A DNA stretch of 64,000 bases from a virus. The notes beneath the pieces were generated by a model, which searched no databases, was not told where the DNA came from, and worked only from the letters and a program-made list of their open reading frames with translations. Positions 8,267 to 60,504 of this stretch are shown in pieces (within the stretch, counting starts at the first letter, position 1; each line of letters opens with the position of its first letter). Location: the IMG/VR virus record IMGVR_UViG_3300047564_005910, positions 48,317-112,316 of that record. One strand, given 5' to 3'. The position numbers and the translations under genes were made by a program.

Positions 8267-8434
8267 ATGGAAATTATAGTCAACACCTTATATGGTACTT
8301 ATATTGTACCAGCAAGTAAAGCAGATCAATTAGTAGCGTGGCTGCAACAAAACGCTGTGAAGCAAGGTCAGCAACCTATCGGTGAAATAAAACAAGACGG
8401 AAATTACTTAGGTAAACAGCTTATTAATGAATAA
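8267..8434 (+). CDS. Small hypothetical protein (55 aa, not in the ORF track)
   Basis: MEIIVNTLYGTYIVPASKADQLVAWLQQNAVKQGQQPIGEIKQDGNYLGKQLINE*; fills the gap after a promoter and overlaps the dut start. Confidence 0.65.
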   Translation: MEIIVNTLYGTYIVPASKADQLVAWLQQNAVKQGQQPIGEIKQDGNYLGKQLINE

Positions 8435-8945: not shown

Positions 8946-9866
8946 ATGTTTGATAACCTGTATATTGAGAGATATCGCCCTAAAACTTTAGACGATATTA
9001 TTTTAACTAAAGAAGAAAAAAATTACTTTCTCTCTTTAAAAGACAAGAAAGAAATACCTCATCTTCTTTTTACAGGTTCGCCCGGGACAGGTAAAACGTC
9101 TTTAGCAAAAATATTGGTAACGGACGTCTTAAATTGTCAATACCTTTACATTAATGCTTCAGATGAGAATGGTATTGATACTATTAGAAGTAAAGTTATA
9201 GGGTTTTCTCAAACAAAGTCCTTTGATGGGGGCTTGAAGGTTGTCTTGTTTGATGAGTGCGATTCTATAACGTTTGATGCACAAAAAGCCTTAAGAAATG
9301 TTATAGAAGAATATTCGTCTAATACTCGTTTTATTTTTACTTGTAACTATCTTTTTAAGATTATACCGGCTTTAAAATCTAGATGTCAAGTTTTTGAATT
9401 TGCACCACCTATAGATTTGATAGTCGGTCGGGTATCTGAGATTCTCAAGACAGAAAAAATAACAGTGCCGGAGACTGAAAAAGGTAAACTAATTGAATTA
9501 GTAAGAAAAAATTACCCAGATATTAGACGTATAATTAACGACGTACAAAAATATTCGTATTCAGGATCTTTACTGATAAAAGAAAAACAAATAACAACTC
9601 TTACAGATAAAATAGTAACTTCAGTTCTTACTAAACAAAACCTATTTAGTTTACGTAAACAGATTATAGAAAATGAAGTTGAGTTTTCGAGTGACTATCA
9701 TTTTCTATTAAAAGAAATGTTTGAGTGTATTTTTAATAAAGAAATCCCGGAAGATAAAAAAACTAATCTTCTTTTAACTATTTCTGAAGCGATGTATCAA
9801 GACGCTCTTGTTGTTGATAAAGAAATAAACTGGTTTAGTTGTTGTTTAAAACTTTCTTCTTACTAG
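8946..9866 (+). CDS. gp44: Sliding clamp loader large subunit (gp44/RFC-like AAA+)
   Basis: ERYRP, GSPGTGKT, INASDENGID, DECD and SRC motifs. Confidence 0.93.
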   Translation: MFDNLYIERYRPKTLDDIILTKEEKNYFLSLKDKKEIPHLLFTGSPGTGKTSLAKILVTDVLNCQYLYINASDENGIDTIRSKVIGFSQTKSFDGGLKVVLFDECDSITFDAQKALRNVIEEYSSNTRFIFTCNYLFKIIPALKSRCQVFEFAPPIDLIVGRVSEILKTEKITVPETEKGKLIELVRKNYPDIRRIINDVQKYSYSGSLLIKEKQITTLTDKIVTSVLTKQNLFSLRKQIIENEVEFSSDYHFLLKEMFECIFNKEIPEDKKTNLLLTISEAMYQDALVVDKEINWFSCCLKLSSY

Positions 9867-27080: not shown

Positions 27081-27818
27081 TTATTTTACAAGGGCTGATA
27101 TAATAAATTTAGTGTTTATTAAGCTTGTATAATTTTCAAATAACAGTATTTTAAGGTTGTTGTTTATTTTTACTAAAAATTGCTGTTGGCCTAACCCGCT
27201 TAGCACCCGGAAGTTTTCTAAATTTAAAGGTATGTTATCTGTTATCTCTTTACCGTTATATTCATTAGTTATGAGGTATGTAATATTGTTAACGTTTTGT
27301 CTTTGATGGTCGTTAAGCTCTGCGTATACTTTCTCCTCCCGGGTAAAGAAATATAATTTGTCTGTATCAGTAGCTATAGAACTACCTTTTAATATTTCGT
27401 TAAATTTTGTATTTGTTAATTCAAACTGACTATCAAACTCTAACTGTTGTATTTTTTGAGGATTAACAGGACTTTTTTGTATATAACTATCATCAATTAA
27501 GAAGTAGTTAAACTTTAACCCCGCTGTATCATATTTTAAAGAGTTGTTTGTAACAGTTAGTGTAATCTCAGGCTGTTCAACACATTCAAGTAAACGAATA
27601 AACTTCTTTATATCAGGTATGTTTAACTTGGGCACGTTTAAGCTACCTGTTTCAACTTTATACTCAGCGTATAAAACTACACTACCGTCGTTTGAATTAC
27701 ACGTAGTATATATTTTGTTTGTATCAATACAAAGAGAGGCATTATCTGTTAATTTACTAACAGGTAACAAAAATTGCCGTAAAAATATATCTTTACTAAA
27801 TGTTATTTTTTTATCCAC
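27081..27818 (-). CDS. gp45: Sliding clamp (gp45/PCNA-like)
   Basis: 245 aa, beta-rich; LNIPDIKKFIRLL, FELT...FNEILK and C-terminal FIISALVK pattern; GTG start; the genome also encodes gp44 and gp55. Confidence 0.7.
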   Translation of the reverse strand: MDKKITFSKDIFLRQFLLPVSKLTDNASLCIDTNKIYTTCNSNDGSVVLYAEYKVETGSLNVPKLNIPDIKKFIRLLECVEQPEITLTVTNNSLKYDTAGLKFNYFLIDDSYIQKSPVNPQKIQQLEFDSQFELTNTKFNEILKGSSIATDTDKLYFFTREEKVYAELNDHQRQNVNNITYLITNEYNGKEITDNIPLNLENFRVLSGLGQQQFLVKINNNLKILLFENYTSLINTKFIISALVK

Positions 27819-28188: not shown

Positions 28189-28842
28189 TTAGGCTTTTTT
28201 ATCTTGTTGTGCAAATTCTACAAATTTATAAAACTCAGCACGAGATTGATCGCTTTTATCTAAAAACGCCCCTGACATTCTTGCAGTCCTCATAGTACTG
28301 TCATGCTTAATACCGCGATTCGAACAACAGGTATGATTAGCTTCTATTAATACAGCAACTCCTTTATTCTTTTCGCAGACTTGATCAATATACTGATGAA
28401 TCTGCATTGTAAGATTTTCTTGGACTTGAGGTCTACGTGAAAACCAATCAACGATACGGTTTAGTTTAGACAAACCAATAACCTTACCCGTCTTTGAAGG
28501 AATATAAGCAACGTGTGCTACCCCCATAAACGGTGCGTGGTGATGGGAGCACATCGATACTACCTTAATATTATTTTGACAGACCATACCATCATAACCA
28601 TCTACATTAGCAAAAGCTGTTACTTTGGGCGGAGCAGTATAACACCCCATCGCTAAATCTGTAACAAACGCCTTAGCTACACGACGAGGCGTATCGGCAC
28701 TATTCGGGTCATTACGCCAATCGAAGCCGAGAGCGTCTAAATATTGTTCGTATGCCTGAGCTCCCCTTGATATTAATTCTTCTGTTTCTTCTGGTGTATG
28801 AACTATATTATGATTAGCGTATTGTAGTTTTTTTCTAGACAT
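28189..28842 (-). CDS. folE: GTP cyclohydrolase I
   Basis: [32 protein letters not shown] and HTCCSNRG Zn-binding motifs. Confidence 0.96.
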
Positions 28843-30776: not shown

Positions 30777-32135
30777 TCAAGTATTATTTTTAGTGCCTAA
30801 TTTTTCTAAAGTTGTTTCAGCCTCGTTAATAGTTTTTTCAGAATTTTCAGACGAAAAGTAATCAGGGTTAGTTTCGGTAAGAGTTAGTGTCTCGTATTTT
30901 ACTTTAAATGCACAACTACCGTAGTTAACACCAAAACGATTTTTCTGCATACCTAAATGTATAATACCTAGTTCTTTATCTTCTTCTTCTTGCCACAACG
31001 AACAAATAACGTCACATGTTGCGGCTAAGCCAATACTTTCAGAAATACTTTCCATACCAGGATTCGCTGAATTGAACGCTGGTCTATTAACCTGACTGGC
31101 TGTGACAAACGGTATATTAAACTTAAATGAAAGTGCTCGTAACTGCTCAGCAACTTCTTTTACTGATTCATACGAGTTTAAATTTTTTGTCGAAGGCTTT
31201 AAAAGATTTATATAGTCAATAACAACAATCTCAGGCTTAAAACCCTTACGGGTTAGCTTGGTTATATAACTATCGATGTTTCTTACTGAAACAGTTTTTG
31301 GTGGGTATTCTTTTATAACTAGCTTACTTTCAATTTGTTTCCTTATATGACCGACCTGCTGTTTGAGCTCTTCTGTATAAAGCTTTAATTGGTTATGAGG
31401 TATTTGTGTAAGTTGGGTACTAATACGCTTAGCGTACATAAACTCTGACATCTCTAAAGAGATTAACAAAGTGTTGCGGTTACCCATTACCATATTTGCA
31501 GCTATATTACCCAATACAATACTTTTACCGATATTAACCTGACCAACAAAGCAGGTTAATGTTTTCGGGTAAAGGCCTCCCTCTAACTTTTCGTCTAAAA
31601 ATTTCCAGTTAGTAGGTATCGGGTTATATACAGTTAGTAACTCTCTAATGTGTTCTTCAACATTATCAAAGTACCAATGACCCATGTCTTCAACTAAGTT
31701 AATGCTATAAGCTTTTTCAAACTTTGTAAGTGTCTCTGCAATATCAGCCTTACCCTGAGAGTATTTTTCAGCTGTATCAACAATAATTTTATATAAACTT
31801 CTTTCTTTTAAGAAGAGCTCTGTGTTAGCTATTAACTCTTCTTTGTTAAAATTAGTATCGAATTGTTTAAATGCATTTGCAACACTGTTAAAAGCGTTTT
31901 TTTCTTCTTCAGTTGTTAACCGTGTCTTAACTTCTGTTAAGGTTGGACAGCTACCTCTCTCATTAAAAAATGAAACAATGGTCCCTAACACCGTTTTAAC
32001 CTCTTTATTAGTAAAGAAATTAATATCTATGTGTTCAATAATTGAGGATAGATACTCCTGGCTTAAGAGTGAATTAAACAAGATTACATACTCGTAGTAA
32101 TCTAAATCCAGCTTAGAGGTGTTTGTAGACATCAA
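30777..32135 (-). CDS. gp41: Replicative DnaB-like helicase
   Basis: GQVNIGKS, SLEMSE, VVIDYINL, TASQVNR, SESIGL and KNRFG. Confidence 0.95.
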   Translation of the reverse strand: MMSTNTSKLDLDYYEYVILFNSLLSQEYLSSIIEHIDINFFTNKEVKTVLGTIVSFFNERGSCPTLTEVKTRLTTEEEKNAFNSVANAFKQFDTNFNKEELIANTELFLKERSLYKIIVDTAEKYSQGKADIAETLTKFEKAYSINLVEDMGHWYFDNVEEHIRELLTVYNPIPTNWKFLDEKLEGGLYPKTLTCFVGQVNIGKSIVLGNIAANMVMGNRNTLLISLEMSEFMYAKRISTQLTQIPHNQLKLYTEELKQQVGHIRKQIESKLVIKEYPPKTVSVRNIDSYITKLTRKGFKPEIVVIDYINLLKPSTKNLNSYESVKEVAEQLRALSFKFNIPFVTASQVNRPAFNSANPGMESISESIGLAATCDVICSLWQEEEDKELGIIHLGMQKNRFGVNYGSCAFKVKYETLTLTETNPDYFSSENSEKTINEAETTLEKLGTKNNT

Positions 32136-33241
32136 TCGTCGATTTTATCGACTTCTTCTTCAAGTTCAACAGTATTGCTACCACCGTAAGAAAGTTTTTC
32201 TTGTAAAACGTTTTCTAGCTCAGGCATAATCTGTTCCCAGAGAGCGGCATCTTTTTCAATATTTTTCCGATACCCAATACTTTTACCTTGGAAGCTATAA
32301 GTTCTACCTTCTTGTTTAATAACGTCAAACGCAAGAGCAATATCAAACAAACCGGTATGTTTGTCTAAGCCTGATTTAAAGTTTAAATAAAGCTCAGTTT
32401 TTAAGAAGCTAGGTATAAAACGATTTTTTACCGTTAGTGCGCCAAGAGTTACCCCTGTAATATTATGCGCAATAGCAATACCTTCTTCTTCAGGATTCTC
32501 AGAAGCTTTTTCGTTCTTGGTACTAAGTTGTACTAAAATCGATGAAAGATAAACAGGTCCTTTACCTCCTGATTGAGTCTTAACAAGAGTAGGAAACATT
32601 TCCATAGAATCATAAACGTGATTACTAAATAGAATAGGTACTCTAGCTTTTGCAGCTTTATACGTAAGTGTACGCATCATAGATTTAATAGCCTTAGCTC
32701 TTTGACCGACGTCAGATGCATCCTTACCTGCAACAGCATCTCTAATCTCTTTGCCTGACGCTAAGTTACCTAGCGAATCGATAGAGATAATAAATTTTAG
32801 TTCAGGGTTGTCAGCTTTAATAACGTTATCTAAAAACGTTACAATTTGATTACGGCAATCCTCGATGGTTTCAACAGGATAGTACTTCGTCTTAGCTGGA
32901 TCCATACCAATGTTTTCAGCTCCTTTTTTATCAACTGCAACCTCTGAATCCCAAATTACAGCTATATACCCTTTCTTTTGAGCATTAGCCATAATTTTGT
33001 TCATTATAAGTGTTTTACCAGCCATTGACGGTCCAGAAAAACCAGTAATACGACCTGACGGTACACCTTTATGTAGGGAACCAGAAAGAATAGCATTTAA
33101 TGCGTAAGAACCTGTATCAATCCAGTCATCAGCAGTAGACAATGTACTGCTTTCTAGTATTGCGGCGTCTGGATTTAAATCGTCTACAGACTTAAAAATA
33201 TCTTTTAGTGAATCAAGTGAATTAGATGCTTTTTTACCCAT
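32132..33241 (-). CDS. uvsX: RecA-like recombinase
   Basis: IDTGSYALNAILSGS, GPSMAGKT, DSE, IDSLGNL and NHVY. Confidence 0.95.
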   Translation of the reverse strand: MGKKASNSLDSLKDIFKSVDDLNPDAAILESSTLSTADDWIDTGSYALNAILSGSLHKGVPSGRITGFSGPSMAGKTLIMNKIMANAQKKGYIAVIWDSEVAVDKKGAENIGMDPAKTKYYPVETIEDCRNQIVTFLDNVIKADNPELKFIISIDSLGNLASGKEIRDAVAGKDASDVGQRAKAIKSMMRTLTYKAAKARVPILFSNHVYDSMEMFPTLVKTQSGGKGPVYLSSILVQLSTKNEKASENPEEEGIAIAHNITGVTLGALTVKNRFIPSFLKTELYLNFKSGLDKHTGLFDIALAFDVIKQEGRTYSFQGKSIGYRKNIEKDAALWEQIMPELENVLQEKLSYGGSNTVELEEEVDKIDD

Positions 33242-33281: not shown

Positions 33282-33884
33282 TTAAAAATGAACAATATAA
33301 TCTATAGAATTTTCTCTAATGAAATTTTCAAAATAATTCAAATTCCAAGGATTATTTTTTCTCATATGAAAGTGCCATTCTATCGCTAAATGCTTCATGT
33401 AATTAAACGTATTGTCTAATAGCATTTTATCTAAAACTTCGCACTCTGCTCCTTCAATATCCATCTTTACATGTATATCATCTTCTTGGCTAAAATTGTT
33501 TTTAACAAAAGTAGAAAAATCAATACATTTTGTTTCCATTTCAACTTTTGGTGGCCATTCAGCCATATGATCTTTTTCTATATACGTGGGTATTAAAAAA
33601 TTTTCATGTAAGATGTTACTAGCACCACCTACCCACTTTTTTTCATACTTACAGAATTCAACATTTAATGTTCTTGATTCATTTTTATCCCAAACAGCAA
33701 CGTTATGAATTTTTATATTTGGGTGGGTGTATTTTTCCTTTAAAATATCAAAACTATTTTTATTGGGTTCAAACATGTGGACTTCAGTATCATCCAACTG
33801 AAGCCCCCAATGCTTGAAGTACAGTTCAAATCCTGAACCGATTTGCGATCCGCAATCTAAAAATACTTTTTTATTCTTCGTCAT
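33282..33884 (-). CDS. FkbM-family SAM-dependent methyltransferase
   Basis: VFLDCGSQIG, MFEPN, NVAVW, VKMDIEGAE and IEWH. Confidence 0.85.
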   Translation of the reverse strand: MTKNKKVFLDCGSQIGSGFELYFKHWGLQLDDTEVHMFEPNKNSFDILKEKYTHPNIKIHNVAVWDKNESRTLNVEFCKYEKKWVGGASNILHENFLIPTYIEKDHMAEWPPKVEMETKCIDFSTFVKNNFSQEDDIHVKMDIEGAECEVLDKMLLDNTFNYMKHLAIEWHFHMRKNNPWNLNYFENFIRENSIDYIVHF

Positions 33885-34257
33885 CGAAGAGTTTAACCAC
33901 GTCTTGATCTGCAGGTGCTTGGCCCGGAACAGGTTGTTCAGGCTGAGGCTGGGAAGCTAAACTCATAATTTGCTCATATTGAGCAATAATTTTAAAATCC
34001 AGAACCGGGTCTTTAACAAGAGCGATGCTGTCCTTTGTAAAGGAAACGATTACATCATCTGCTTTATCTGCTAAAAACTCTTTGAAAAAGAGAGGTAGAA
34101 TCTGAAGAGATAACTGACCTGTTTGAGGGTTTGGCTGTAAGTGAAGTACAGCTGGATCTTTTACGGTTAAGGTTTTGTCGTTTGATTCGACTTCTTGACC
34201 GATAATTGTACGGCTAACTGAGTCGAAGAACGCTACGATTTTTTTGTTGTTACTCAT
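33871..34257 (-). CDS. Hypothetical protein (possible Sm/SH3-like beta-barrel)
   Basis: TIIG...LTVKDPAVL beta pattern; sigma70-like TTGCAT/TATAAT upstream. Confidence 0.55.
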   Translation of the reverse strand: MSNNKKIVAFFDSVSRTIIGQEVESNDKTLTVKDPAVLHLQPNPQTGQLSLQILPLFFKEFLADKADDVIVSFTKDSIALVKDPVLDFKIIAQYEQIMSLASQPQPEQPVPGQAPADQDVVKLFDDEE

Positions 34258-34295: not shown

Positions 34296-35243
34296 CTACT
34301 GACCCATAGCTTTTTTAGTGTAATATTTCGGGTTTACTAAAACAGGGGGTAGCATGTCAAAAGATGTAGCTCTACACGGATTAATGTCTAATGAACCACG
34401 ACGTGAGTATAGTAGAGTTACAGCACAAGAATCTACTTCAGGACATTTCATAATTTCTGTATAAAGCTTTTCAGCACAAAACTCGTGAAACTCGTTAACC
34501 TCTCTAAGAGAGACTACCTGTTTAAAAAGTGATTCAGGTTTAAGAACACAACCAAGGGTGTTAATTGAGATATAAGCGGCTCCTGTATCTTTTTGCTTTG
34601 TATGGCGGCAACGAGAGCGTAATGCATTAGTAAAGAATTTATTTGCATAAAGGGCTTTGTTTTCTTTTATACTATAACCAAAGCCCGAATAATTAACACT
34701 TTCAAATTCAAGATGATTTTTTTCTGCATTATAATCAGTAATTTCAATACTCTCAAGATCTTTATCTAAGAAAGATTGTAAATCAATATAACCTGTCATA
34801 GGGAAGATTTCATTAATCTCATCTCCTGACCTAAAAAACTTAACATCAACGGAAGTTTCTAAAGCTTTTTCGAGATCTGTCTTAACTTGTAATTCGTAAT
34901 TTTGAATAGCAGAATCAAGCGACTGGCCCATCTTACACATGTCAAAAGTATTAAGGTAAAGTTTAGCAGACTTCGATTCAACCATATACTTAGAATCGGA
35001 TGAATAGGTGTACTTTAAAGTACCAGCTATAGGTACACCGCTATTAAGAAGAAAAGTAGCTTCATGGCAGTGCCAAGTATCATACCCAACAAATTCATCC
35101 CCTTTAATACCCCATCCATCTCGAGCGAGTTTACGGGGCATCGGGTTAAGAAGAGAGGGATCAAAACGGTCAGTGTAAACAGCATAAGAGGCTGAAGACC
35201 CTAACGATTTTGAAGCGATATCGTTTAAGTTTGTTGTACTCAT
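34296..35243 (-). CDS. queF: NADPH-dependent 7-cyano-7-deazaguanine reductase (bimodular QueF)
   Basis: QueF motif VESKSAKLYLNTF, catalytic LRSRCRHTKQKD (cf. LKSNC..T.QPD), EFHEFC and YSRRGSLDINP.R. Confidence 0.9.
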   Translation of the reverse strand: MSTTNLNDIASKSLGSSASYAVYTDRFDPSLLNPMPRKLARDGWGIKGDEFVGYDTWHCHEATFLLNSGVPIAGTLKYTYSSDSKYMVESKSAKLYLNTFDMCKMGQSLDSAIQNYELQVKTDLEKALETSVDVKFFRSGDEINEIFPMTGYIDLQSFLDKDLESIEITDYNAEKNHLEFESVNYSGFGYSIKENKALYANKFFTNALRSRCRHTKQKDTGAAYISINTLGCVLKPESLFKQVVSLREVNEFHEFCAEKLYTEIMKCPEVDSCAVTLLYSRRGSLDINPCRATSFDMLPPVLVNPKYYTKKAMGQ

Positions 35244-35788
35244 TGTTTTAAATATTTTTCTATTGTTTTCATTCTTTGCTCAACAGAACCTTTAAGCCGA
35301 ATGACTTTTTCTTTATTCTTCGGAGAAATTTTATACGTAATTAAATCTTCGAACAGAACAATTATATCATCTCTAAATTTAAAATCCACAGAACGTTCTC
35401 CGTCATCGACTAATTTTACATCAGATGGATCTGTATAAAAAACGTAGTCTAACTTATCAAACAGTAAACTAAATACACTATTAAAAGCATGTAAAACATC
35501 TTCTTTTACCTTGCCTTGATTTACTTGATATTTTGTATAAACATAACCATCTAAAATACAACGATCAAGCATTAAATTTTCTTCCGGTTTAAGATGATTC
35601 TTAATATGTTCAGCTAAAATGTATAGTTGAGTTTCTGTACCGCCAATCTCATTAATCTTTACATCATACGTCCGGCGAACATACCTCGTAACCTCATCAA
35701 CAAACTTATAATCTTTATAAGTCTCTTTGCACTTATTTAGTAAGGTAGTTTTACCTGTACTCTGAGCACCTGTAAATGAAACTCTCAT
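35240..35788 (-). CDS. P-loop nucleotide kinase-like protein (AAA_28/NadR-type)
   Basis: SFTGAQSTGKTT, DEVTR, LDRCILDGYVY and DDGER. Confidence 0.8.
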   Translation of the reverse strand: MRVSFTGAQSTGKTTLLNKCKETYKDYKFVDEVTRYVRRTYDVKINEIGGTETQLYILAEHIKNHLKPEENLMLDRCILDGYVYTKYQVNQGKVKEDVLHAFNSVFSLLFDKLDYVFYTDPSDVKLVDDGERSVDFKFRDDIIVLFEDLITYKISPKNKEKVIRLKGSVEQRMKTIEKYLKQ

Positions 35789-35795
35789 ATCTTTA

Positions 35796-36332
35796 TTATA
35801 GTCTATATCTTAAAAAATCAACCCATAATTCAGAAGCAGCTTTATGAGTTTTAGTAAAAATTTCATCAAGAGTATTGTTTTTTATATCAACAATATTTTG
35901 TGCTAGTATTGGCCCAGCATCTAATTCAGCAATACATTTGTGTATAGTGTTACCTGAGTATTTCAATTTTTCTTCAAAAGTACGAACTTGCGGGTCTTTA
36001 CCCTTTAGGTGAGGGTACGTAACTAAAGGGGCTGGATGCAAATTATATATTTCGTACAAGTCACATATTTCAGGTGGTATGATACGTAACCAACCGTGTA
36101 GTGTTACAAGAGATCTACTAGGTATAACATTTTTATATTCTTCTACTGTTGGTTTTTTTGGTAGCCAAATAAACTTGTCATGAAATTCATCAAATAATTC
36201 GGGTTTAATTTCTAAAAATTTATCTTTAGTTTTATTTGTAATAATAAAATCAGGTACCCGGTTAAGAGTTTTTATTAAATTAAAGATTTCAGAACCTGTT
36301 TGACTAAACAGTGTTACCCAAGGTCTTTTCAT
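35796..36332 (-). CDS. Formyltransferase (PurN-like), candidate preQ1 formyltransferase (DpdN-like)
   Basis: FSQTGS, LHGWLRI, YNLHPA, G.TIH and ELDAGPI formyl-THF motifs; sits between the DpdA-like gene and queF. Confidence 0.85.
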   Translation of the reverse strand: MKRPWVTLFSQTGSEIFNLIKTLNRVPDFIITNKTKDKFLEIKPELFDEFHDKFIWLPKKPTVEEYKNVIPSRSLVTLHGWLRIIPPEICDLYEIYNLHPAPLVTYPHLKGKDPQVRTFEEKLKYSGNTIHKCIAELDAGPILAQNIVDIKNNTLDEIFTKTHKAASELWVDFLRYRL

Positions 36333-37159
36333 TTACAGAGATTTCTAAACTGCGTAATATTCCAAAAAGAGTCGTATACTTGCTGACTTGTTAGATTAGC
36401 ATCAATAAAATCAACAAGTTTTACTGACCATTTTTCTGAAAGACCGGGACCCGGTTCATATCTTTTACCAAGAATGCCCGCAACAATTGGATTTGAAGTA
36501 TCAATAGTTTCAATATACTCACTCAAGTAATTATCAGAATATAGAGAAAATTCCCAAGGCAAAGATGCTCCGAGTAGATGATGTGGTTTGTCAACATCTA
36601 AAACGTCATTATCGTAAAGATCGTCAAGAAGCTTTACCCGGCCAATAGCATATTTAAACCATTTATTATCTTCATGGGACTTGACAAATCCCGGTACATT
36701 AATTTGTGACCAGTCACAGTTATCTAGGTAATAAGAATAATCAAACGAAATAGCAATTTTATCAACCTTTGGTGCTACAAAACGATAACAGTCAACAATA
36801 TCCTGATAGGTCTTACCCTGTACAACACCAATTTTACGTCCAGGTAGATCAGAATACTTTGTTAGGAAGTTATCCATTGACATACAAGTACCGGCTGTAT
36901 CCTCTAAAACATCAGGGATAACATACTCGAAGGGTTTAAGTTCTTTGACCCAATACGCAAACTGATCCGGATCAAAAGAGGTTCCTAGCTCAAAAATAGA
37001 GTTATCTAATAGAACTCTGCGACCGTAATCTACGGATCTGAAATAAAATTCTTTGTACGCCTGATTCTCAGGCAATAAATGCACCAAGCAATAATCATAG
37101 TCATTATAACCCCAAGAGTATGGAAGCAACGATACGGGTGTTTCGTGTGAGATTTTCAT
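36329..37159 (-). CDS. dpdA: TGT-fold guanine transglycosylase (DpdA3-like)
   Basis: LLDNSIFE, IPDVLED, IGVVQG, HHLLG and IDTSNP, the TGT/DpdA barrel motifs; clustered with queF and the polymerase. Confidence 0.75.
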   Translation of the reverse strand: MKISHETPVSLLPYSWGYNDYDYCLVHLLPENQAYKEFYFRSVDYGRRVLLDNSIFELGTSFDPDQFAYWVKELKPFEYVIPDVLEDTAGTCMSMDNFLTKYSDLPGRKIGVVQGKTYQDIVDCYRFVAPKVDKIAISFDYSYYLDNCDWSQINVPGFVKSHEDNKWFKYAIGRVKLLDDLYDNDVLDVDKPHHLLGASLPWEFSLYSDNYLSEYIETIDTSNPIVAGILGKRYEPGPGLSEKWSVKLVDFIDANLTSQQVYDSFWNITQFRNLCK

Positions 37160-37174
37160 AGAAGAAATTATATA

Positions 37175-39724
37175 CTAATTACAAAGTAAATCAAATAAAT
37201 CTGTTTGTACTTCTTTACCAATAATAGGTAATCTCCAGCCAATAGCGTCATAAACTTGTTCAATAGGAGGAGCTACAATTTTATTAAACATTTTATCGTA
37301 ATCAATTTTAACATCTAAACTAAACTCTTTCGGGTATTGATTTACAAAACCAATAGCGTCAAGGCCGTATGGGTTTTTTGCGGCATAAAAGTATTTGATC
37401 TTTTGACCTGAATTGATACGTTCATACTTTGTTTCAAGGTTATATTTTTCTAATAAGAGGTTATATGCAATTGCTGCTTTAACATGGCATGGTGTTGCTA
37501 AATTGAATTTTGCTAAAGAGGCGCCACCAGACCATTTGTCGTATTCTTTAACAGCTTTTCGAAACGCTGCATCTTCTACTTTAAGTGTTTTAAACAGTTC
37601 ATAAGCTTCTCTGTATACCTCGTTTGTCTTCTTTACATCTTTAGTTAAGAACGCTGTATTAATAGTTTTTTTAATTAACTCTTTAACTTGTTTAGGTGTT
37701 GTTGAACGTGCTAACTCAACACCAACATATTTAAATTTACTCGTAGGTACACCTTCTTCGTCTAGAATGTGAAGTATGTATCGTTTCTTCTGTAAAAAAG
37801 AACCGACATCAGCTATGGCTTCTCGCTTAAATTCAAATCGCGGATCAGCAGAGTTTAACTCTTTACGAGCCCAAGAAAGAATTTCTGTATTTAAATGTCT
37901 GCCAAGAGCATCAACTATTTTATGAGACTCGGAAGTAATGGCGTCATCTTTTACAAGCGGTAGTTTAAGTTTATTAAGGATAGGTTGTATAGTTGTGTAT
38001 AGGGAGTCGGTGTCCCCAGATAAAATAAGAGATTCATCGACATTAAATTTTTCTTTAGCCCATGCGTCAATAATAGCCCCTCCTGCTTTAGCAACAGCTT
38101 GACCGGTTAACGTGATTGAAGACGCGTTATCAATATCCATAAACGCCGAATGTTTGTTTGCAAACGTTCCGTAAATAGAGTTAAGGAGAATCTTTAACGT
38201 GTACTGTAGAGTATCAAAGTATTGTATTTGGGAAATTGTTTTTGGATCTTTTTGTTTTGTTTTTTTAAGCTCGATCATTTTTTGACGAGCATAGACTCGC
38301 TCATCATAAATGCTATTAATCAGGTTAGGACAAACACCTTTGTATTTTTGAGAGTATAAAACACCTGCTTTAGACAAAGAGACATTTTCTTCGGTTAGAA
38401 ATTTTTTAAGTTTCTTGGTGTTTATTGTAAAAATATTACCATTAACAAGACGTATATCGAGATCTTCATCTCCGTCAACATTACCTGTAACTATTTTACC
38501 TAGTTTAGTTTCTGGTGAAATATTAAGAGTTATGATTGTGTTAGGGTACAGAGAGTTAACGTCAAAACTTACAATAGCTTCTTTAAGACCTCGTTCAGGC
38601 TCCCTTACATAACCACCTTCAAGAGACTCTCTAATAGTATCGTTTTTAAACGTTGGTATGACGTAGCCTTGTTTGTCAGCCTGTAAAGTCATAGCTCCAG
38701 TAACAATAGATACCTTACCGAGAGCTCTTTCGAAATTTGTACAACCTTTATAAGACAATAGACGAATAATTTTAAGGTAGTTAAGTTTTTCTTCTAATTT
38801 ACGAAGCAGATCAACGTCCTGGATGTTATAGTCAACAAAATTTTCCCAGTCAGTGTCAGCTAAAGAGGATAAGTTTGTAGCATTAATAGCAAGCTTACCT
38901 TCCCCTAATTCGTATTCAGCAATATAATTTAACGAAAATGATTCTCGGTCACCTTTTGAATAGGTTTTGTAAATCTCCATGTAGTCTAAACAACTAACAC
39001 CTGAAATATACCAACGACCTACATCTTTACCAAACTTAGCAAAATTTTCTCTATACTGCATTTCACCGATTGGTGATAATTGTTTTATAAAATCTTCTCC
39101 GAGCAGGTTTCTAGCACGGTTAATAATATAAGGAATATCGAACTGCTCAGTATTCCACCCTGTTAAAATATCTGGAGGATCTTTTTTCCAGAACTTAACA
39201 AAGTTATCAAAAAGTTCTTGTTCTGTTTTACATAATATGTATGTAACATTATCGAGTTTAGGTTTATAGTCGTGCTTTAACCCCCAGGTGGTTATCTGGT
39301 TTGTCAGGGTATCATATACCGTAATAAGTACTACAGGGTCCTTAGCTTTATGAGGTACAGGGAACTCATTAGGAGAGTACGTTTCAATATCGATAAAATA
39401 AACTTTTAGTGGAAACTTACTAAACTCTTCTTTATGAACGTCGTCTTTAAACGTTTCAACCAAGAATTGCTGATCGACAGGCAGATTGCCAAATAACCTT
39501 TTAGTACTTGTTTCGTTTACGTACTTGTTTCGTTCAAAACTATTTTTAAAAAAATGTCTTTTTAGTGGTGTTTTAAAGATCGAGACAGCGTCTTTTGATT
39601 TTTCACTCTCTGTATAAAGAAACGGTGTAAACGGAACCTCAGTATCAATTCTATCGCCGTCAGAAGTCCACGTTCTTAGATATACAGTTCCTTCTCGTGG
39701 CCTATAAGTTGCGTTCCTAAACAC
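37175..39724 (-). CDS. gp43: Family B DNA polymerase
   Basis: Exonuclease motifs DIETY, GWN..FDIPY, YNIQD; polymerase motifs SFDVNSLYP, KILLNSIYG, GDTDS, KKRY; GTG start. Confidence 0.97.
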   Translation of the reverse strand: MFRNATYRPREGTVYLRTWTSDGDRIDTEVPFTPFLYTESEKSKDAVSIFKTPLKRHFFKNSFERNKYVNETSTKRLFGNLPVDQQFLVETFKDDVHKEEFSKFPLKVYFIDIETYSPNEFPVPHKAKDPVVLITVYDTLTNQITTWGLKHDYKPKLDNVTYILCKTEQELFDNFVKFWKKDPPDILTGWNTEQFDIPYIINRARNLLGEDFIKQLSPIGEMQYRENFAKFGKDVGRWYISGVSCLDYMEIYKTYSKGDRESFSLNYIAEYELGEGKLAINATNLSSLADTDWENFVDYNIQDVDLLRKLEEKLNYLKIIRLLSYKGCTNFERALGKVSIVTGAMTLQADKQGYVIPTFKNDTIRESLEGGYVREPERGLKEAIVSFDVNSLYPNTIITLNISPETKLGKIVTGNVDGDEDLDIRLVNGNIFTINTKKLKKFLTEENVSLSKAGVLYSQKYKGVCPNLINSIYDERVYARQKMIELKKTKQKDPKTISQIQYFDTLQYTLKILLNSIYGTFANKHSAFMDIDNASSITLTGQAVAKAGGAIIDAWAKEKFNVDESLILSGDTDSLYTTIQPILNKLKLPLVKDDAITSESHKIVDALGRHLNTEILSWARKELNSADPRFEFKREAIADVGSFLQKKRYILHILDEEGVPTSKFKYVGVELARSTTPKQVKELIKKTINTAFLTKDVKKTNEVYREAYELFKTLKVEDAAFRKAVKEYDKWSGGASLAKFNLATPCHVKAAIAYNLLLEKYNLETKYERINSGQKIKYFYAAKNPYGLDAIGFVNQYPKEFSLDVKIDYDKMFNKIVAPPIEQVYDAIGWRLPIIGKEVQTDLFDLLCN

Positions 39725-39754: not shown

Positions 39755-40996
39755 TCAATTAACTTGTTTAATATATTTTCGTTCCGAAGAACCATAAGGC
39801 GTGAAATAAGCTTCATGGTGTTTCATAATGTTTTTTTCATCCTCTAGCCAGAAATCTTCTGCGTATTCTCGGGACCTCTTACAAAGGTCAGCATACGTAT
39901 GTTGATTTTTTGTTGCCGTCTTTATACAGTCAATAAATTCTGAACCGTTAGAGTATTTTAATATAGCGTCTTTATATGTGACCATATCGGGACATACACA
40001 CGGTATACCGAGAGCTGCAGCTTCAAGTAATTTAATATTACTCTTTGCTTTGTTGAAGTTATTATCTTGTAATGCTGCAAACGTCAATTGTGTTCCTGAT
40101 TCAGCCATAGCAAGAGGGTAATCCGGAAGTTCAACCCATGGATGGAATGTTATTTCACCTGAATCAATAAAAGGTTTAAGCGGTAACGGGTAGCAGCCAT
40201 AAAACTGCCACTTAAAATCTTTGCGTGCCTTTATTATGTGCTGTACTACTCCCGCAAAGTCATCGTTTTGATTAACTCTGTTTGTTACATCGACGTGAGT
40301 ACCGGACGCAAAAATTGTTACAACTGGTTTCTTTTTATTCTTTTCAAACTTTTTAACCAAGTCTCCTAGGTTGTAGTATCTGTCAAACCACCATTTTAAT
40401 AGATAGTTAGGTATGGTAGTAATATTTTTGTTACCGGTTTTTTCGATATAATAATCCCGCATGAAATCACAAGTTACTGTCATTTCATCCATCATGCTAA
40501 TAATCTCTAAAATACTATCTCTAATTTCGTTTTGTACGAAAGCATCTTTATTACGATTAAAATCAGGTATGTCTTCTCTAAAGACGATATCATCAACTTC
40601 ATAGATGAGTTTGAATTTCATTTCTTCAGATAATTTTTTAAGTTGCTTAACAAATTCTTTTTGCATCGGGGTAGCCTGACGCTGTATTTTAATAGCTTTT
40701 ACCCCCATATAAAAGCGAGGATCAAGAACCATGGTTGTTAATTCAGTTAAAACAGCCTTTTGGTACAGGTTTAACATTAAATTAGGGGACATACACCTGT
40801 ACCAGCTACAGCCTCCGTAATCAGCTAAATAATTTATAGCTCTAGGTAAATTCGCACCTGGTATCTCAGGTGGTGGCAAAGTAGGCATATTAGGTGGCTG
40901 TATTGCAAAATTCTGCGCCCCGGGTATACCTGGCGGTAAGCCAGCAGGAGCTCCGGGTATATTGTAAATGGCCGAATGGATTGGTGCAAAATTCAT
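39755..40996 (-). CDS. GT-B-like glycosyltransferase with Pro-rich N-terminus
   Basis: GCSWYR..P, YEVDD, VTCDFMRDYY, TIPNY and FNKAKSNIKLLEAAALGIP. Confidence 0.8.
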   Translation of the reverse strand: MNFAPIHSAIYNIPGAPAGLPPGIPGAQNFAIQPPNMPTLPPPEIPGANLPRAINYLADYGGCSWYRCMSPNLMLNLYQKAVLTELTTMVLDPRFYMGVKAIKIQRQATPMQKEFVKQLKKLSEEMKFKLIYEVDDIVFREDIPDFNRNKDAFVQNEIRDSILEIISMMDEMTVTCDFMRDYYIEKTGNKNITTIPNYLLKWWFDRYYNLGDLVKKFEKNKKKPVVTIFASGTHVDVTNRVNQNDDFAGVVQHIIKARKDFKWQFYGCYPLPLKPFIDSGEITFHPWVELPDYPLAMAESGTQLTFAALQDNNFNKAKSNIKLLEAAALGIPCVCPDMVTYKDAILKYSNGSEFIDCIKTATKNQHTYADLCKRSREYAEDFWLEDEKNIMKHHEAYFTPYGSSERKYIKQVN

Positions 40997-56237: not shown

Positions 56238-57488
56238 ATGCTACTCGAGAAAGCGTTTAATTCTTTCTATAAAGAAAATGTTAACACCTACCTGCTTGAA
56301 AAAGCCGGGATTGTTAAACATTTAACACATCTGGAAGAATTAATACTTACCCAACGAGCAATGGGGGTTGAAGTAGCTGTCAACTTTATAAAGGTTTTAC
56401 TCGATACACTTGAAGGTGGTACTGATCAAAGAGTAATTACCACTATTAAGTACGACGGTGCACCAGCAATAATTGCTGGTATTAATCCAGATAATAATCG
56501 CTTTTTTGTATCTACAAAAAGTATTGCCAATGTAAAGCCAAAAATAAACTATACTGCCCAAGATATTGTTAACAATCACGGAAACGCACCTGGGTTAGCA
56601 GAGAAACTTAAAATGGCCTTACAGTATCTCCCTGAAGTTATAAAACAAGGCATCTACCAATGTGATTTTATGTTTGACCCGGGAACACTTTATACTGTCG
56701 AACATGAAGGTGAGAAACTTTTAGCATTTAAACCGAACACAATTGTTTATACCTTTCCGTATGATAGTGAAGCGGCTCAAGAGATACTCAAAGCAAAAAT
56801 AGGGGTTATTTTTCATACAAAGTATGAAGGTGCACCAAGTCAAGGTCTTACATCAGGTGGTGTTGTTAATGTTAATGAATTTAATAAATCTTCAAACGTT
56901 TGGTTTGACGATGCTCAATTTAAAAACGTCTCCGGTGCTGTTACACTTACAAAAAAAGAAAAGACCGGTATTAATGAAACTCTTAAAAATATAATTTCAA
57001 TTAGCCGCACTGTAAATTGGGATAAGTTACCACCGGATTTTTATAGTAACGCAAATACTTTTATTAATACCCTTATAAGACAAGGTAAGTTTGTTGATGA
57101 CCCGGTGGAAGGGTATGACAGTATTGTTAAATGGATTGGTGAGAGGTATGATAAAGATACGTCAGTACTTAAAACCGACAAGGGCCGGGAACGTAAATTA
57201 CAGCAAAAAGAAGAAGAAATGAAAACCCTTAAGGTACATAAAAAAGATATTTTAAGTATTTTTAGTATAACAAAAAAATTAGCTGAAATAAAAATTCTCT
57301 TTATTCAAAAATATAACGCAGCCATACATACAAGACATTTTATAGCGGAACCTAATGGTGATCTAAAGGTTACCGCTCCGGAGGGCTATGTTGCAATTGA
57401 CCAAGAGGGGAACATGATTAAACTTGTTGACAGGTTAGAATTTTCCCGTGCTAATTTTGCTGTAACAAAAGGAGAAAAGTTTAAGTGA
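56238..57488 (+). CDS. Ligase-like nucleotidyltransferase of unknown function (T4-like phage family, DUF6267-like)
   Basis: HLTHLEE, TIKYDGAPA (KxDG), EGYV and IKLVDRLEFSRANF; TAAATA at 56225-56230. Confidence 0.65.
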   Translation: MLLEKAFNSFYKENVNTYLLEKAGIVKHLTHLEELILTQRAMGVEVAVNFIKVLLDTLEGGTDQRVITTIKYDGAPAIIAGINPDNNRFFVSTKSIANVKPKINYTAQDIVNNHGNAPGLAEKLKMALQYLPEVIKQGIYQCDFMFDPGTLYTVEHEGEKLLAFKPNTIVYTFPYDSEAAQEILKAKIGVIFHTKYEGAPSQGLTSGGVVNVNEFNKSSNVWFDDAQFKNVSGAVTLTKKEKTGINETLKNIISISRTVNWDKLPPDFYSNANTFINTLIRQGKFVDDPVEGYDSIVKWIGERYDKDTSVLKTDKGRERKLQQKEEEMKTLKVHKKDILSIFSITKKLAEIKILFIQKYNAAIHTRHFIAEPNGDLKVTAPEGYVAIDQEGNMIKLVDRLEFSRANFAVTKGEKFK

Positions 57489-58111
57489 AATCCTTTTATT
57501 CTTTCTTTTTTGAAAACGAACAAACTGGTAAAACAATAGTTATTTTTCCAGGCGGTTTTCATCCTTTTCATAAAGGGCATAAGAGTATATACGACAATAT
57601 TGTAAAAACATTTCCAAATGCGGACAAGTATATTGCTATTGCTGATTTTACAAAAGATCGTCCATTTACCGCGGACGAAAAAAAGCTTATAATATCTTCA
57701 ACGGGTATTGATCCTAACGCAGTACGAGTTGTAAAAAGCCCGTTTAAAGCAGAAGAAATTTTATCTCGATATAACCCTGAGAAGGATACAGCAATATTTG
57801 CTATGAGCGAAAAAGAAAAGCAAGACCCTAAAAAAGCTTCTTTCTTTAACCCGTTTAAGAAAGACGGATCACCTGCTTATTTTCAGCAGTATCAAACAAG
57901 TACACCATTACAGCCATTCGGTAAGCATGGTTATATATATGTATTCCCAACAATTGATTTTAAGCTTCTCGGTAAATCGTTTCGTAGTGCTAGTGAATTA
58001 AGGCAGTATTATCAAAGCCTTAATGACGAACAAAAAATGTCTCTACTAAAAGACATGTATATAAGCAATCAAGAACAAATTAAGAAAATATTTGACGAAA
58101 GATTGATATAA
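57485..58111 (+). CDS. HxGH cytidylyltransferase-like nucleotidyltransferase
   Basis: IFPGGFHPFHKGH, PF...EK and SASELR; GTG start overlapping the upstream stop. Confidence 0.8.
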   Translation: MKSFYSFFFENEQTGKTIVIFPGGFHPFHKGHKSIYDNIVKTFPNADKYIAIADFTKDRPFTADEKKLIISSTGIDPNAVRVVKSPFKAEEILSRYNPEKDTAIFAMSEKEKQDPKKASFFNPFKKDGSPAYFQQYQTSTPLQPFGKHGYIYVFPTIDFKLLGKSFRSASELRQYYQSLNDEQKMSLLKDMYISNQEQIKKIFDERLI

Positions 58112-58115
58112 TAGT

Positions 58116-58143
58116 TGAAATTAGGTATTCCGGAATATATCAT
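58116..58143 (+). promoter_or_regulatory. Sigma70-like promoter for the queD/queE operon
   Basis: TTGAAA-N17-TATCAT upstream of the ATG at 58154 (coordinates approximate to 1 nt). Confidence 0.5.
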
Positions 58144-58153
58144 ATTGGTATAT

Positions 58154-58471
58154 ATGAGTACAACCATTTTATATCCGGCTGACGAAAGTAGTACCAGTCA
58201 GCATTCAATCCCGTTTTCAAAAGATGAAATTAACTTAATTATTGAGTGTTTATTATTTTCATCATCAGTAAACATCGGGGCAGATTGGCAAGAAGATGAT
58301 TTTTTAAAAATGTTAACGCTTGCTAAAAAAATTAAAAAGATTATTAGCAAAATTGATCTTAAAAACCTTATGCTCTATAAAGAAGAAAATTACGAAGATA
58401 ATTGGACTGAAGAGCTATGTAAAGAATTTGGTAAAGATATTCAACAGGAAGTAGAGCTAAATAAAGCCTAA
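58154..58471 (+). CDS. Hypothetical protein
   Basis: Likely start MSTTILY at 58154; its stop overlaps the queD start. Confidence 0.6.
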   Translation: MSTTILYPADESSTSQHSIPFSKDEINLIIECLLFSSSVNIGADWQEDDFLKMLTLAKKIKKIISKIDLKNLMLYKEENYEDNWTEELCKEFGKDIQQEVELNKA

Positions 58472-58917
58472 TGATAACATTCGAATCAACAAAAATAATT
58501 GAGCTAGGCTCATGTGCATTTCGTCAATGGCGAGCAGAAGGTACTCACTGCAAGTATGTACATGGTTATCAATTAAAAGCTAAATTCTGGTTCGGGTGCA
58601 CCGGTTTAGATGATAAAAACTGGGTCATTAATTTTGGTGGCTTAAAAGAAGTTAAAAGGTTATTACAAGATCAGTTTGATCATACGCTCTGTATAGCGGC
58701 AGATGACCCTCTACTTAATATCTTTAAAGATCTTTACGAAAGAGGTGGGTGCCAGCTTCGTATCATGGATGGTGTCGGTATTGAGAAAACTGCTGAGTGG
58801 TGCTATAAAAACGTTGACCCCATGATAAGGTCAATGTCAGTAGGACGTTGCTGGGTTAATAAAGTTGAAGTTTGGGAACACGATTTAAATAGTGCAATTT
58901 ATGAAAGATCAGCTTGA
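58471..58917 (+). CDS. queD: 6-carboxytetrahydropterin synthase (QueD/PTPS family)
   Basis: SCAFRQW..HCKYVHGY, WVINFGGLK, FDHT, GIEKTAE and VEVWEH; near queE. Confidence 0.85.
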   Translation: MITFESTKIIELGSCAFRQWRAEGTHCKYVHGYQLKAKFWFGCTGLDDKNWVINFGGLKEVKRLLQDQFDHTLCIAADDPLLNIFKDLYERGGCQLRIMDGVGIEKTAEWCYKNVDPMIRSMSVGRCWVNKVEVWEHDLNSAIYERSA

Positions 58918-59110
58918 AATTATTAATGCCAAATTTGAAAAGGTGATGCCTAAAAATGATAAGGGCGGATTTTGGGGCGGCTTATGGCAGTTTTTATCTC
59001 TTGTATCTATACTTATCTTTTGCGCTTTTTACGTTCTTTTTTTAAACCCACTTGGATGGCTGAGCATTGTAATAATGTCATTAGTCTATAAATTTATTAT
59101 CGGGAGTTAA
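58901..59110 (+). CDS. Small membrane protein (two hydrophobic segments)
   Basis: GLWQFLSLVSILIFCAFYVLFL and LGWLSIVIMSLVYKFII. Confidence 0.6.
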   Translation: MKDQLEIINAKFEKVMPKNDKGGFWGGLWQFLSLVSILIFCAFYVLFLNPLGWLSIVIMSLVYKFIIGS

Positions 59111-59113
59111 TTT

Positions 59114-59872
59114 ATGATAGATAACAATAAAGAAACATTGTTCCTTTCTGACGATTTAGTATTTTATACTATTGAAGGTGAAGGAGAGTTCATTGGGCAG
59201 CCGTCGGTGTTTATGCGATTAGCTATGTGTAATTTGACATGTATTGGTTTTGCGTCGCCTGATTCACCTAACGGTTGTGATTCATTTGTGTCGTGGTCTG
59301 TAAAAAATAAAAAGACATTTACTGAGATCTTTCAAATGATGGAAAATAACAATTACGTAGAACACCTTCGTAATAGAGCAATATTAAAATTAACCGGTGG
59401 GGAGCCCCTTATTCAAGAAAAGCAGCTTCTTAAATTTATTGAAGCCTTTATTGAGAGATATAATTTTACCCCTCGTATTGATTTTGAAACTAACGCAACA
59501 CTGATACCTTCTGAACGGTGGCGCTCAATTTTTAATGCAACGTTTACTACATCCCCTAAGCTGTCCACTAACGGGGACCCAGAAGAGAAGTCTTATAAAC
59601 CGGAAGTACTCCGCTGGCATGTCGAGCATGGTTCGGGGTTTAAGTTTGTTATTACTTCTGATAGAGATATAGAGGAGATTTGGAAAAAGTACGTTGATGA
59701 CGACCAAGGTATAAATGTGCCGTTATTTCGTATATGGTTTATGCCATGTTGCGGCTCACGTAAAGAGCATATTGAAAATGCAGCAGCTGTTGCTGAATAT
59801 GCTAAGTCAATGCACGTGAATTTTTCTCCAAGATTACAGCTAGTAATTTGGGATAAAGCGCTTAAAGTATAA
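59114..59872 (+). CDS. queE: 7-carboxy-7-deazaguanine synthase (radical SAM)
   Basis: FYTIEGEG..G.P.VF.RL, CNLTC-X11-CD, LTGGEP, ETN, SPK and PRLQ. Confidence 0.92.
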   Translation: MIDNNKETLFLSDDLVFYTIEGEGEFIGQPSVFMRLAMCNLTCIGFASPDSPNGCDSFVSWSVKNKKTFTEIFQMMENNNYVEHLRNRAILKLTGGEPLIQEKQLLKFIEAFIERYNFTPRIDFETNATLIPSERWRSIFNATFTTSPKLSTNGDPEEKSYKPEVLRWHVEHGSGFKFVITSDRDIEEIWKKYVDDDQGINVPLFRIWFMPCCGSRKEHIENAAAVAEYAKSMHVNFSPRLQLVIWDKALKV

Positions 59873-59874
59873 TA

Positions 59875-60504
59875 ATGAAAATTGCTTTTATTGGTACACA
59901 TTGTAACGGAAAAACTTCTCTTATAGAAGAATTTTTGCAAAAATGGCCTATGTACAAGCGGCCTGAAAAAACATATAGAGAACTTCTTAAAGAGAAAAAA
60001 GTAACAAATAATAAAGAAGGAACTGAAGAAAGTCAAAAAGCTATTTTAAACGCTCTCATCGATGAAATACAAGAAGCTGTTGCGACCGGGGATAAAGACA
60101 TTGTTTTCGATCGCTGTGTAATCGATAATATCGTTTACTCTCTTTGGTTAAACGAAAATAATAAAGTTAGTGATCAATTTATAATGGATTCAAAATTCTT
60201 AGCATTGCAAAGTTTAAAAATGTTAGATATTATATTTTATTTGCCGTTAAGAGAAGAAATTAAAATTACTGAAAAAGAAACTAGAGAAACTGATCCATCT
60301 TATCGAAAAGAGATTGATAATATTTTTAATGCTTTAGTACAGACATATGAAAAAAATACCGGTGCTTTCTTCCCTCTAGAAGATTGTCCTGCAGTCATAA
60401 GACTTGAAGGTCCTCCTGATTTAAGATGTCAACAAATACAGCTTTATCTAAAAGAAACAGGTCAAGTATATAGCGAAACCGACGGATCCTTACTTTATGT
60501 ATAA
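59875..60504 (+). CDS. Second P-loop nucleotide kinase-like protein (AAA_28-type)
   Basis: IAFIGTHCNGKTS and FDRCVIDNIVY; similar architecture to 35240-35788. Confidence 0.75.
   Translation: MKIAFIGTHCNGKTSLIEEFLQKWPMYKRPEKTYRELLKEKKVTNNKEGTEESQKAILNALIDEIQEAVATGDKDIVFDRCVIDNIVYSLWLNENNKVSDQFIMDSKFLALQSLKMLDIIFYLPLREEIKITEKETRETDPSYRKEIDNIFNALVQTYEKNTGAFFPLEDCPAVIRLEGPPDLRCQQIQLYLKETGQVYSETDGSLLYV

Follow-up and report, generated by a model that had tools for sequence, protein, structure and literature searches.

We analysed a 64,000-nucleotide (nt) window of an uncultured virus (IMG/VR record IMGVR_UViG_3300047564_005910), which is the final 64 kb of a 112,316-bp contig whose completeness was estimated by CheckV to be about 53%. 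Between positions 34296 and 39724, the window carries a cassette of five contiguous open reading frames (ORFs), all placed on the minus strand by the ORF listing. Its upstream boundary is formed by a gp43-type family B DNA polymerase (PolB) of 849 amino acids (aa; 37175-39724), which has both the DNA_pol_B domain (PF00136) and the exonuclease domain (PF03104) and matches phrog_262 (E 6e-199). The polymerase is followed by the gene for a 276-aa protein with the fold of tRNA-guanine transglycosylase (TGT) and a pI of 4.7, a predicted DpdA3-type 7-deazaguanine transglycosylase (36329-37159; phrog_19058, E 1e-48), then by a DpdN-type formyltransferase of the PurN superfamily (35796-36332; 178 aa; PF00551, E 4e-13), a P-loop nucleoside/nucleotide kinase, here called Kin1 (35240-35788; 182 aa; AAA_28, E 8e-15), and a two-domain QueF, the nitrile reductase that converts preQ0 to preQ1 (34296-35243; 315 aa; PF14819 and PF14489; TIGR03138, E 9e-48). 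The genes are closely packed, with a 15-nt gap between the polymerase and the TGT-fold gene, a 7-nt gap between the formyltransferase and the kinase, and 4-nt overlaps both between the TGT-fold gene and the formyltransferase and between the kinase and QueF. The ORF coordinates and family matches confirmed the original prediction for this stretch, according to which the five genes are contiguous and co-oriented, with some overlapping stop and start codons. Judged from its sequence, the locus is very probably a DpdA3-type 7-deazaguanine DNA-hypermodification cassette of an uncultured T4-like phage, for whose virion DNA we predict fdPreQ1 (formylated preQ1) in place of G.

The order of the cassette was seen again in more than 100 viral contigs, which are related to one another, and given this recurrence the arrangement is not a product of chance. 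A megablast search of 50,697 phage records with the cassette returned zero matches, and the PADLOC models, including those for Dpd proteins, gave zero matches for any cassette protein. Promoter-like sites showed no excess over shuffled sequence.

Three named relatives assign the 276-aa protein to DpdA3. It is 45% identical to DpdA of Flavobacterium phage immuto_2-6A (YP_010114477; E 4e-54), 41% identical to CP220 gp056 (E 6e-44) and 23% identical to phiST CGPG_00065 (E 7e-4), and these three proteins are the founding members of DpdA3 (PMC10516641). The AlphaFold2 (AF2) model of the protein, with a predicted local distance difference test (pLDDT) score of 94.4, has a TGT fold. Its best Foldseek match was the TGT of Z. 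mobilis (E 1.5e-8, probability 1.0), and the best four matches in VIA-align were ArcTGT (Z 17.7; root-mean-square deviation 2.9; 230 aligned), DpdA 7ui4 (Z 17.0; 227 residues aligned), TGT (Z 15.6) and QTRT2 (Z 14.9); generic TIM barrels came next at Z ≤14.7, the TGT-type matches being just modestly higher. The identities and the modelled fold bear out the earlier suggestion that the gene at 36329-37159 is DpdA3-like. Searches with sequences and profiles were less informative, as the protein had no Pfam or NCBIfam match at E ≤0.01, Pfam TGT included, a profile of DpdA3 homologues gave chance matches only against PDB sequences, and hhalign found no significant similarity between this profile and E. 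coli TGT (probability 1.9). The proposed relationship between DpdA3 and TGT rests on the modelled fold and on published HHpred work. Two aspartates are invariant across 39 homologues, D52 (in LLDNSIFE) and D220 (in IDTSNP), and their likeness to the TGT catalytic Asp pair is a motif resemblance only. No Cys is invariant in this alignment, in which four Cys-rich columns reach 59-82%, and the conserved Zn-binding Cys/His cluster of TGT is absent from the 276-aa protein. Furthermore, 76 of 76 DpdA3 homologues were acidic (pI 4.5-6.2), none with a conserved Cys cluster. The family comprises 4,372 metagenomic relatives at E ≤1e-3, with a Pfam domain in none of the best 120 matches, and more than 566 viral-contig stretches encode a member.

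The formyltransferase shares 46% identity with immuto_2-6A DpdN (YP_010114479) over 175 of 178 aa (E 1e-46), and its position between DpdA3 and the kinase is the same as in that phage. Its catalytic triad, N97/H99 (NLHP) and D138, aligns with the PurN motifs in solved PurN chains, an alignment confined to the C-terminal half of the protein. As PurN models are its best curated matches and the TGT fold is common to tRNA enzymes, the genes could be read as serving purine synthesis or the queuosine/preQ1 metabolism of tRNA rather than DNA modification, with the formyltransferase acting as PurN and the TGT-fold protein on tRNA. This appears very improbable: the match to the PurN equivalog TIGR00639 (E 2.5e-12) covers just aa 74-171 and scores 46.7 bits, far short of the 150.1 cut-off, the TGT-fold protein has neither a Pfam TGT match nor a conserved Zn-type Cys cluster, its named relatives are all found in phages with fully modified DNA, and the genes are embedded in a replication module. 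The comparison of DpdN with PurN was decided in favour of the DpdN-like enzyme expected at the outset. QueF, in turn, contains both a QueF_N domain (PF14819, E 1.5e-21) and a QueF domain (PF14489, E 3.4e-9), and the ESKS.KLY motif and catalytic Cys that had been noted in it are both present (ESKSAKLY at aa 89-96; Cys212 in CRHTKQKD), together with an FHE motif. Its TIGR03138 score of 163 bits, against a cut-off of 293, indicates that it is a divergent two-domain member.

Genes for the steps to preQ0 lie elsewhere in the window, at the positions given in the original prediction, and family matches support each of them. FolE, the GTP cyclohydrolase I that catalyses the first step (28189-28842, minus strand), matches PF01227 (E 2e-49) and is 55% identical to immuto FolE. 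QueD, a 6-carboxytetrahydropterin synthase (58471-58917, plus strand), matches the PTPS family (PF01242, E 2e-15) and TIGR03367 (E 3e-8) and is 41% identical to immuto QueD, and QueE, a radical-SAM 7-carboxy-7-deazaguanine synthase (59114-59872, plus strand), matches phrog_2076 (E 1e-39) as well as the QueE TIGRFAMs (E 2e-12 to 3e-7, all under their cut-offs). Only 2 nt past QueE starts a second AAA_28 kinase, Kin2 (59875-60504, plus strand; AAA_28, E 1e-13; phrog_2107, E 4e-21). QueD, QueE and Kin2 form the end of a module (57485-60504, plus strand) that begins with an NMNAT-like nucleotidyltransferase and a 118-aa protein of unknown function, and a relative with a 56% identical DpdA3 has all five genes in this order (G001; L119 3672-6611). 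Kin2 may be either a candidate for a second phosphorylation step or an NAD-salvage kinase.

In the predicted pathway, FolE, QueD and QueE, together with a QueC, would make preQ0, QueF would reduce it to preQ1, DpdN would formylate the aminomethyl group, and DpdA3 would swap guanine for the deazaguanine. The DNA of immuto_2-6A contains fdPreQ1 at 345,000 per 10^6 nt and no dG (PMC10516641, NAR 2023). Homology and the gene order common with immuto_2-6A mark the window locus as a probable new example, from a T4-like phage, of the fdPreQ1 system with DpdA3 and DpdN, and they likewise support, as a prediction, the initial proposal that G is replaced by fdPreQ1 in this phage.

QueC (PF06508) was not found in the whole 112,316-bp record, nor in five partial records of T4-like relatives. 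In immuto and CP220 it is 15-46 kb away from DpdA3, and in non-T4 relatives it comes directly after QueF; in the window phage it may either be encoded in the half of the genome that the record does not cover or come from the host. A 477-aa protein of unknown function was considered as a QueC substitute and rejected for want of support, the protein-atlas search being uninformative. If there is no QueC, the final base could be a pre-preQ0 base such as dCDG; it could also be plain dPreQ1, or a formyl-plus-methyl derivative made via an FkbM-family methyltransferase (33282-33884, minus strand; PF05050, E 2e-10; TIGR01444, E 1.5e-14), which is encoded between the cassette and uvsX. This methyltransferase is peculiar to the window phage, its gene occurring in 0 of the 80 viral contigs encoding DpdA3 homologues (46-92% identity) that we compared, and close relatives keep the rest of the cassette without it. 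The identities to immuto proteins of just 32-46% and the fact that DpdN activity has never been demonstrated biochemically (PMC10516641) would also accommodate a base other than fdPreQ1. We nevertheless consider such a base unlikely, given that the DpdA3-DpdN-Kin1-QueF order matches that of the sole phage with measured fdPreQ1, that DpdN and QueF both retain their catalytic residues, and that the record is estimated at about 53% completeness and QueC is distant from DpdA3 in immuto and CP220, as noted above.

The kinase embedded in the cassette is DpdA3's most constant neighbour. A Kin1-family gene was present within 2.5 kb downstream of DpdA3 at 64 of the 67 IMG/VR loci with at least 1.5 kb of downstream sequence. 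When ORFs within 5 kb of DpdA3 were clustered, Kin1 was counted at 69 loci, QueF at 56, DpdN at 45 and PolB at 27. At loci without DpdN, Kin1 abuts or overlaps DpdA3 (-16 to +3 nt), and at loci with DpdN, the DpdN gene is inserted between them. The order QueE-FolE-DpdA3-DpdN-Kin1-QueF-QueC is kept at 30 further loci. Four T4-like relatives (L023, L025, L028 and L029) have the order PolB-DpdA3-Kin1-128-aa protein-UvsX without QueF or DpdN, which suggests that DpdA3 and Kin1 form the core of the system and that QueF and DpdN are optional add-ons; these four phages should carry another deazaguanine. Kin1-type kinases were not found in the DpdA1 and DpdA2 phages of the phage collection. A profile search recovered 5,638 relatives of Kin1, and fusions were predicted between DpdN and Kin1 (P0199), Kin1 and QueF (P0236), Kin1 and dUTPase, and Kin1 and a GNAT acetyltransferase. 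A DpdA3-kinase fusion, which would have about 460 aa, was not seen among the best 120 matches listed for that length band, a result that carries no weight either way. The metagenomic Kin1-GNAT proteins (P0147, P0175 and P0179) may point to an undescribed N-acetyl-preQ1 variant; the related-locus search found no relatives of P0123 and P0179 in viral contigs.

In VIA, the AF2 model of Kin1 (pLDDT 91.5) matched the ribosylnicotinamide kinase (RNK) domain of NadR best (Z 18.5 and 18.2), followed by human deoxyguanosine kinase (17.1), Dm-dNK (16.1), dAK (15.8) and thymidylate kinase (TMPK; 15.4), and Foldseek returned dCK and the deoxynucleoside kinase dNK at E 1e-8. A phmmer search against PDB sequences returned nothing. 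The P-loop residues G12-K13-T15, D75-R76 (DR motif) and the lid arginine R132 are invariant. The model places Kin1 in the deoxynucleoside kinase/TMPK/NadR-RNK clade, in which the fold alone gives no substrate, and it suggests a small-molecule kinase, unlike the ParB-like ATPase DpdB. The predicted complex of DpdA3 and Kin1 scored 0.11 against a mark of 0.32, which is no evidence on binding either way.

A kinase cannot act on a free base. Given that a dNK-like kinase is linked to DpdA3, and at times to DpdN, the product of DpdA3 would most simply be a nucleoside or nucleotide. Complete replacement of G was reported in all three DpdA3 phages tested, as compared with at most 30% for other DpdA classes (PMC10516641), and genes for hydrolases of nucleoside triphosphates (NTPs) or deoxynucleoside monophosphates (dNMPs) adjoin DpdA3 in phiST, immuto and CP220. 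Taken together, the kinase linkage, the complete replacement and the neighbouring hydrolase genes lead us to favour a pre-replicative route, although we would put its chances at no better than even. In this route, DpdA3 would exchange the base of free (deoxy)guanosine nucleosides or nucleotides rather than that of finished DNA, DpdN would act at the nucleoside or nucleotide stage, Kin1, and after it perhaps Kin2 and the nucleoside diphosphate kinase of the host, would phosphorylate the exchange product, and gp43 would polymerise the resulting triphosphate, fdPreQ1-TP.

In the proposal of the group that defined DpdA3 (Hutinet/Cui et al. 2023; PMC10516641), insertion is post-replicative. DpdA3 would in this case be a DNA transglycosylase that inserts preQ1 or formylated preQ1 for G in replicated DNA, and DpdN would work on either the free base or DNA. 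Kin1 would then be an accessory protein that supplies guanine nucleotides to FolE, supplies deoxynucleoside triphosphates (dNTPs) or serves as a DpdB-like ATP helper. We take this model seriously as a possibility, though we consider it less likely than the pre-replicative route. The structures nearest to the DpdA3 model, ArcTGT, bacterial DpdA and TGT, are polymer-acting enzymes, and bacterial DpdA does need a separate ATPase (PMC10164549); the fold of Kin1, however, is that of dNK, RNK and TMPK rather than that of a ParB-like or DNA-dependent ATPase, and the linkage of its gene to DpdA3 is tighter than that to FolE, QueD or QueE. Moreover, total post-replicative replacement of G would be without precedent in the other DpdA classes, the predicted DpdN-Kin1 fusion would be hard to explain if DpdN works on DNA, and the DpdA3 proteins are uniformly acidic. 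The predicted DpdA3-QueF fusions (P0121 and P0122) would indicate just the uptake of a free base by DpdA3, which both models require.

Besides the published proposal, several points weigh against the pre-replicative route or the kinase argument behind it. To our knowledge, every characterised enzyme of the TGT superfamily acts on a polymer (tRNA, DNA or, for Cap10, protein) and none on nucleosides or nucleotides in free form. Searches of the 112-kb record for MazG, PRA-PH, HD and dUTPase_2 were all negative and revealed no enzyme that would clear dGTP, a result that also favours post-replicative insertion; the sole candidate dNTP pyrophosphatase found in the record is a trimeric dUTPase-family gene (8427-8930, plus strand). 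The absence of QueC from the record counts here as well, and so does the resemblance that the NMNAT-like nucleotidyltransferase and the RNK-like Kin2 bear to a split NadR, with NAD salvage as what these two genes could serve instead. As for the kinase family, a Kin-type kinase adjoins dUTPase away from DpdA3 in CP220, weak Kin homologues occur apart from DpdA3 in E. coli T4-like phages, and the Kin-dUTPase fusions may belong to thymidylate metabolism. Finally, the related loci cannot be treated as phylogenetically independent, and the counts given above are not counts of independent events.

The original prediction had also drawn on both the embedded kinase and the adjacent polymerase to suggest that the modified nucleotide is made before it is polymerised. 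Comparative evidence now favours the first of these arguments without proving it, as Kin1 is a conserved partner of DpdA3 with a dNK/NadR-RNK fold and predicted fusions, and the second is weak, being a matter of T4 synteny. In T4, the gene order is 41-40-uvsX-segA-beta-gt-42-imm-43-regA-62-44-45-46-47-alpha-gt-55, and in the window it is gp41, UvsX, the FkbM methyltransferase, a 128-aa protein, QueF, Kin1, DpdN, DpdA3, gp43, a glycosyltransferase and gp46. The cassette occupies the slot between uvsX and 43, which is T4's site for gene 42 (pre-replicative) and beta-gt (post-replicative), and whose downstream boundary in the window is the UvsX recombinase (32132-33241, minus strand; RecA PF00154, E 5e-20). 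Since this is T4 core synteny, adjacency to gp43 in this lineage is not mechanistic evidence. A polymerase recurs near DpdA3 in the unrelated lineages of CC_R7, phiST and immuto, which fits co-expression with replication genes and does not decide between the two models.

The acidic 128-aa protein (33871-34257, minus strand) has no Pfam or PHROG match and no assigned function; it is conserved in 21 related loci and comes after the cassette in T4-like relatives, including those without QueF and DpdN, and a protein-atlas search gave just a weak Sm-like lead. The neighbouring FkbM methyltransferase gene may be a lineage-specific insertion or provide an extra modification step. On the other side of the cassette, a GT-B-like glycosyltransferase (phrog_7162; 39755-40996, minus strand) lies between gp43 and gp46 and is kept in at least 18 related loci. 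It stands where T4 has regA-62-44-45, and the clamp-loader gene gp44 is found elsewhere in the window (8946-9866), adjoined by the trimeric dUTPase-family gene and a class II (B12-type) ribonucleotide reductase (5725-7713, plus strand). A 245-aa protein encoded near FolE and gp32 (27081-27818, minus strand) has a weak sliding-clamp (gp45-like) match (NF002222, E 7e-7).

The fdPreQ1 system with DpdA3 and DpdN is itself already known, and our sequence comparison adds what appears to be a new T4-like member, extending the system described in 2023 from one cultured Flavobacterium phage to abundant uncultured T4-like phages. The paper in which DpdA3 was defined makes no kinase argument, the word kinase not occurring in it (PMC10516641), and no paper returned in our full-text literature searches addresses this argument. 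It is an evenly balanced question whether DpdA3 is the first TGT-fold enzyme to exchange bases on free nucleosides or nucleotides and whether, with an obligate dNK-like kinase and acyl-transferases (DpdN here, GNAT elsewhere), it supplies a non-canonical purine dNTP to the replicase, the uvsX-43 slot of T4-like phages being re-used for G rather than C. If DpdA3 does act on free nucleotides, this would explain why 100% replacement is reached by DpdA3 phages only, would represent a new reaction type for the TGT superfamily and would provide enzymes for making 7-substituted 7-deaza-dGTPs. The question is directly testable in the cultured phages immuto_2-6A, CP220 and phiST.

Among known systems, that of immuto_2-6A is the most similar. 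Both phages have the order DpdA3-DpdN-AAA_28 kinase-QueF, as well as FolE, QueD and QueE, with full-length identities of 45% for DpdA3, 46% for DpdN, 32% for the kinase, 36% for QueF, 55% for FolE and 41% for QueD. In immuto, a small ORF separates DpdA3 from DpdN and the kinase is annotated as 'thymidylate kinase'; the window has no such ORF. The polymerase of immuto is PolA, whereas the window phage is T4-like with PolB and has its cassette abutting gp43 in the uvsX-43 slot. The PRA-PH NTP pyrophosphatase and the phosphoribosyltransferase of immuto are not near the window cassette, and QueC was not found in the window record; compared with immuto, the window adds the second kinase coupled to QueE and the FkbM methyltransferase.

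CP220 (Firehammervirus) and the Campylobacter phage CC_R7 are T4-like myoviruses, as the window phage is predicted to be, and have a Kin1-type kinase (34% identity) directly after DpdA3. In CP220, an HD-AAA_33 kinase fusion is followed by DpdA3 and then Kin1, and in CC_R7 (L121 3360-8462) QueC is followed by a divergent DpdA3-like gene (25% identity), a 'thymidylate kinase' and a DNA polymerase. Both differ from the window in that they are without QueF or DpdN and that their final base is dADG. In the Cellulophaga phage phiST, which has a dDG system with DpdL, DpdA3 likewise adjoins a P-loop kinase near polymerase genes (PMC10516641). Its order is MazG, DpdL, AAA_18 P-loop kinase and DpdA3, and it differs from the window in the kinase family (AAA_18), in the presence of MazG and DpdL, in the absence of QueC, QueF and DpdN, and in a DpdA3 that is just 23% identical.

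The hydroxymethylcytosine (hmC) pathway of T4 employs the dCTPase gp56, the dCMP hydroxymethylase gp42, the dNMP kinase gp1 and the alpha- and beta-glucosyltransferases. It resembles the proposed pre-replicative route in that a base is modified at the monophosphate level, acted on by a phage kinase and then incorporated by the polymerase, with the same uvsX-43 slot involved. A counterpart of gp56, that is, a dGTPase, was not found in the window record, and the two pathways differ in chemistry, C5 hydroxymethylation of dCMP versus the exchange of a purine base, and use unrelated enzymes.

Bacterial DpdA from Salmonella Montevideo (PDB 7ui4) has 413 aa, acts on double-stranded DNA at low density and requires the ParB-like ATPase DpdB (PMC10164549). 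Like the predicted DpdA3 of the window, it has a TGT-type TIM barrel and exchanges guanine for a 7-deazaguanine. The window protein differs from it in being smaller (276 aa) and acidic, and, in place of DpdB, it is paired with a dNK-like kinase.

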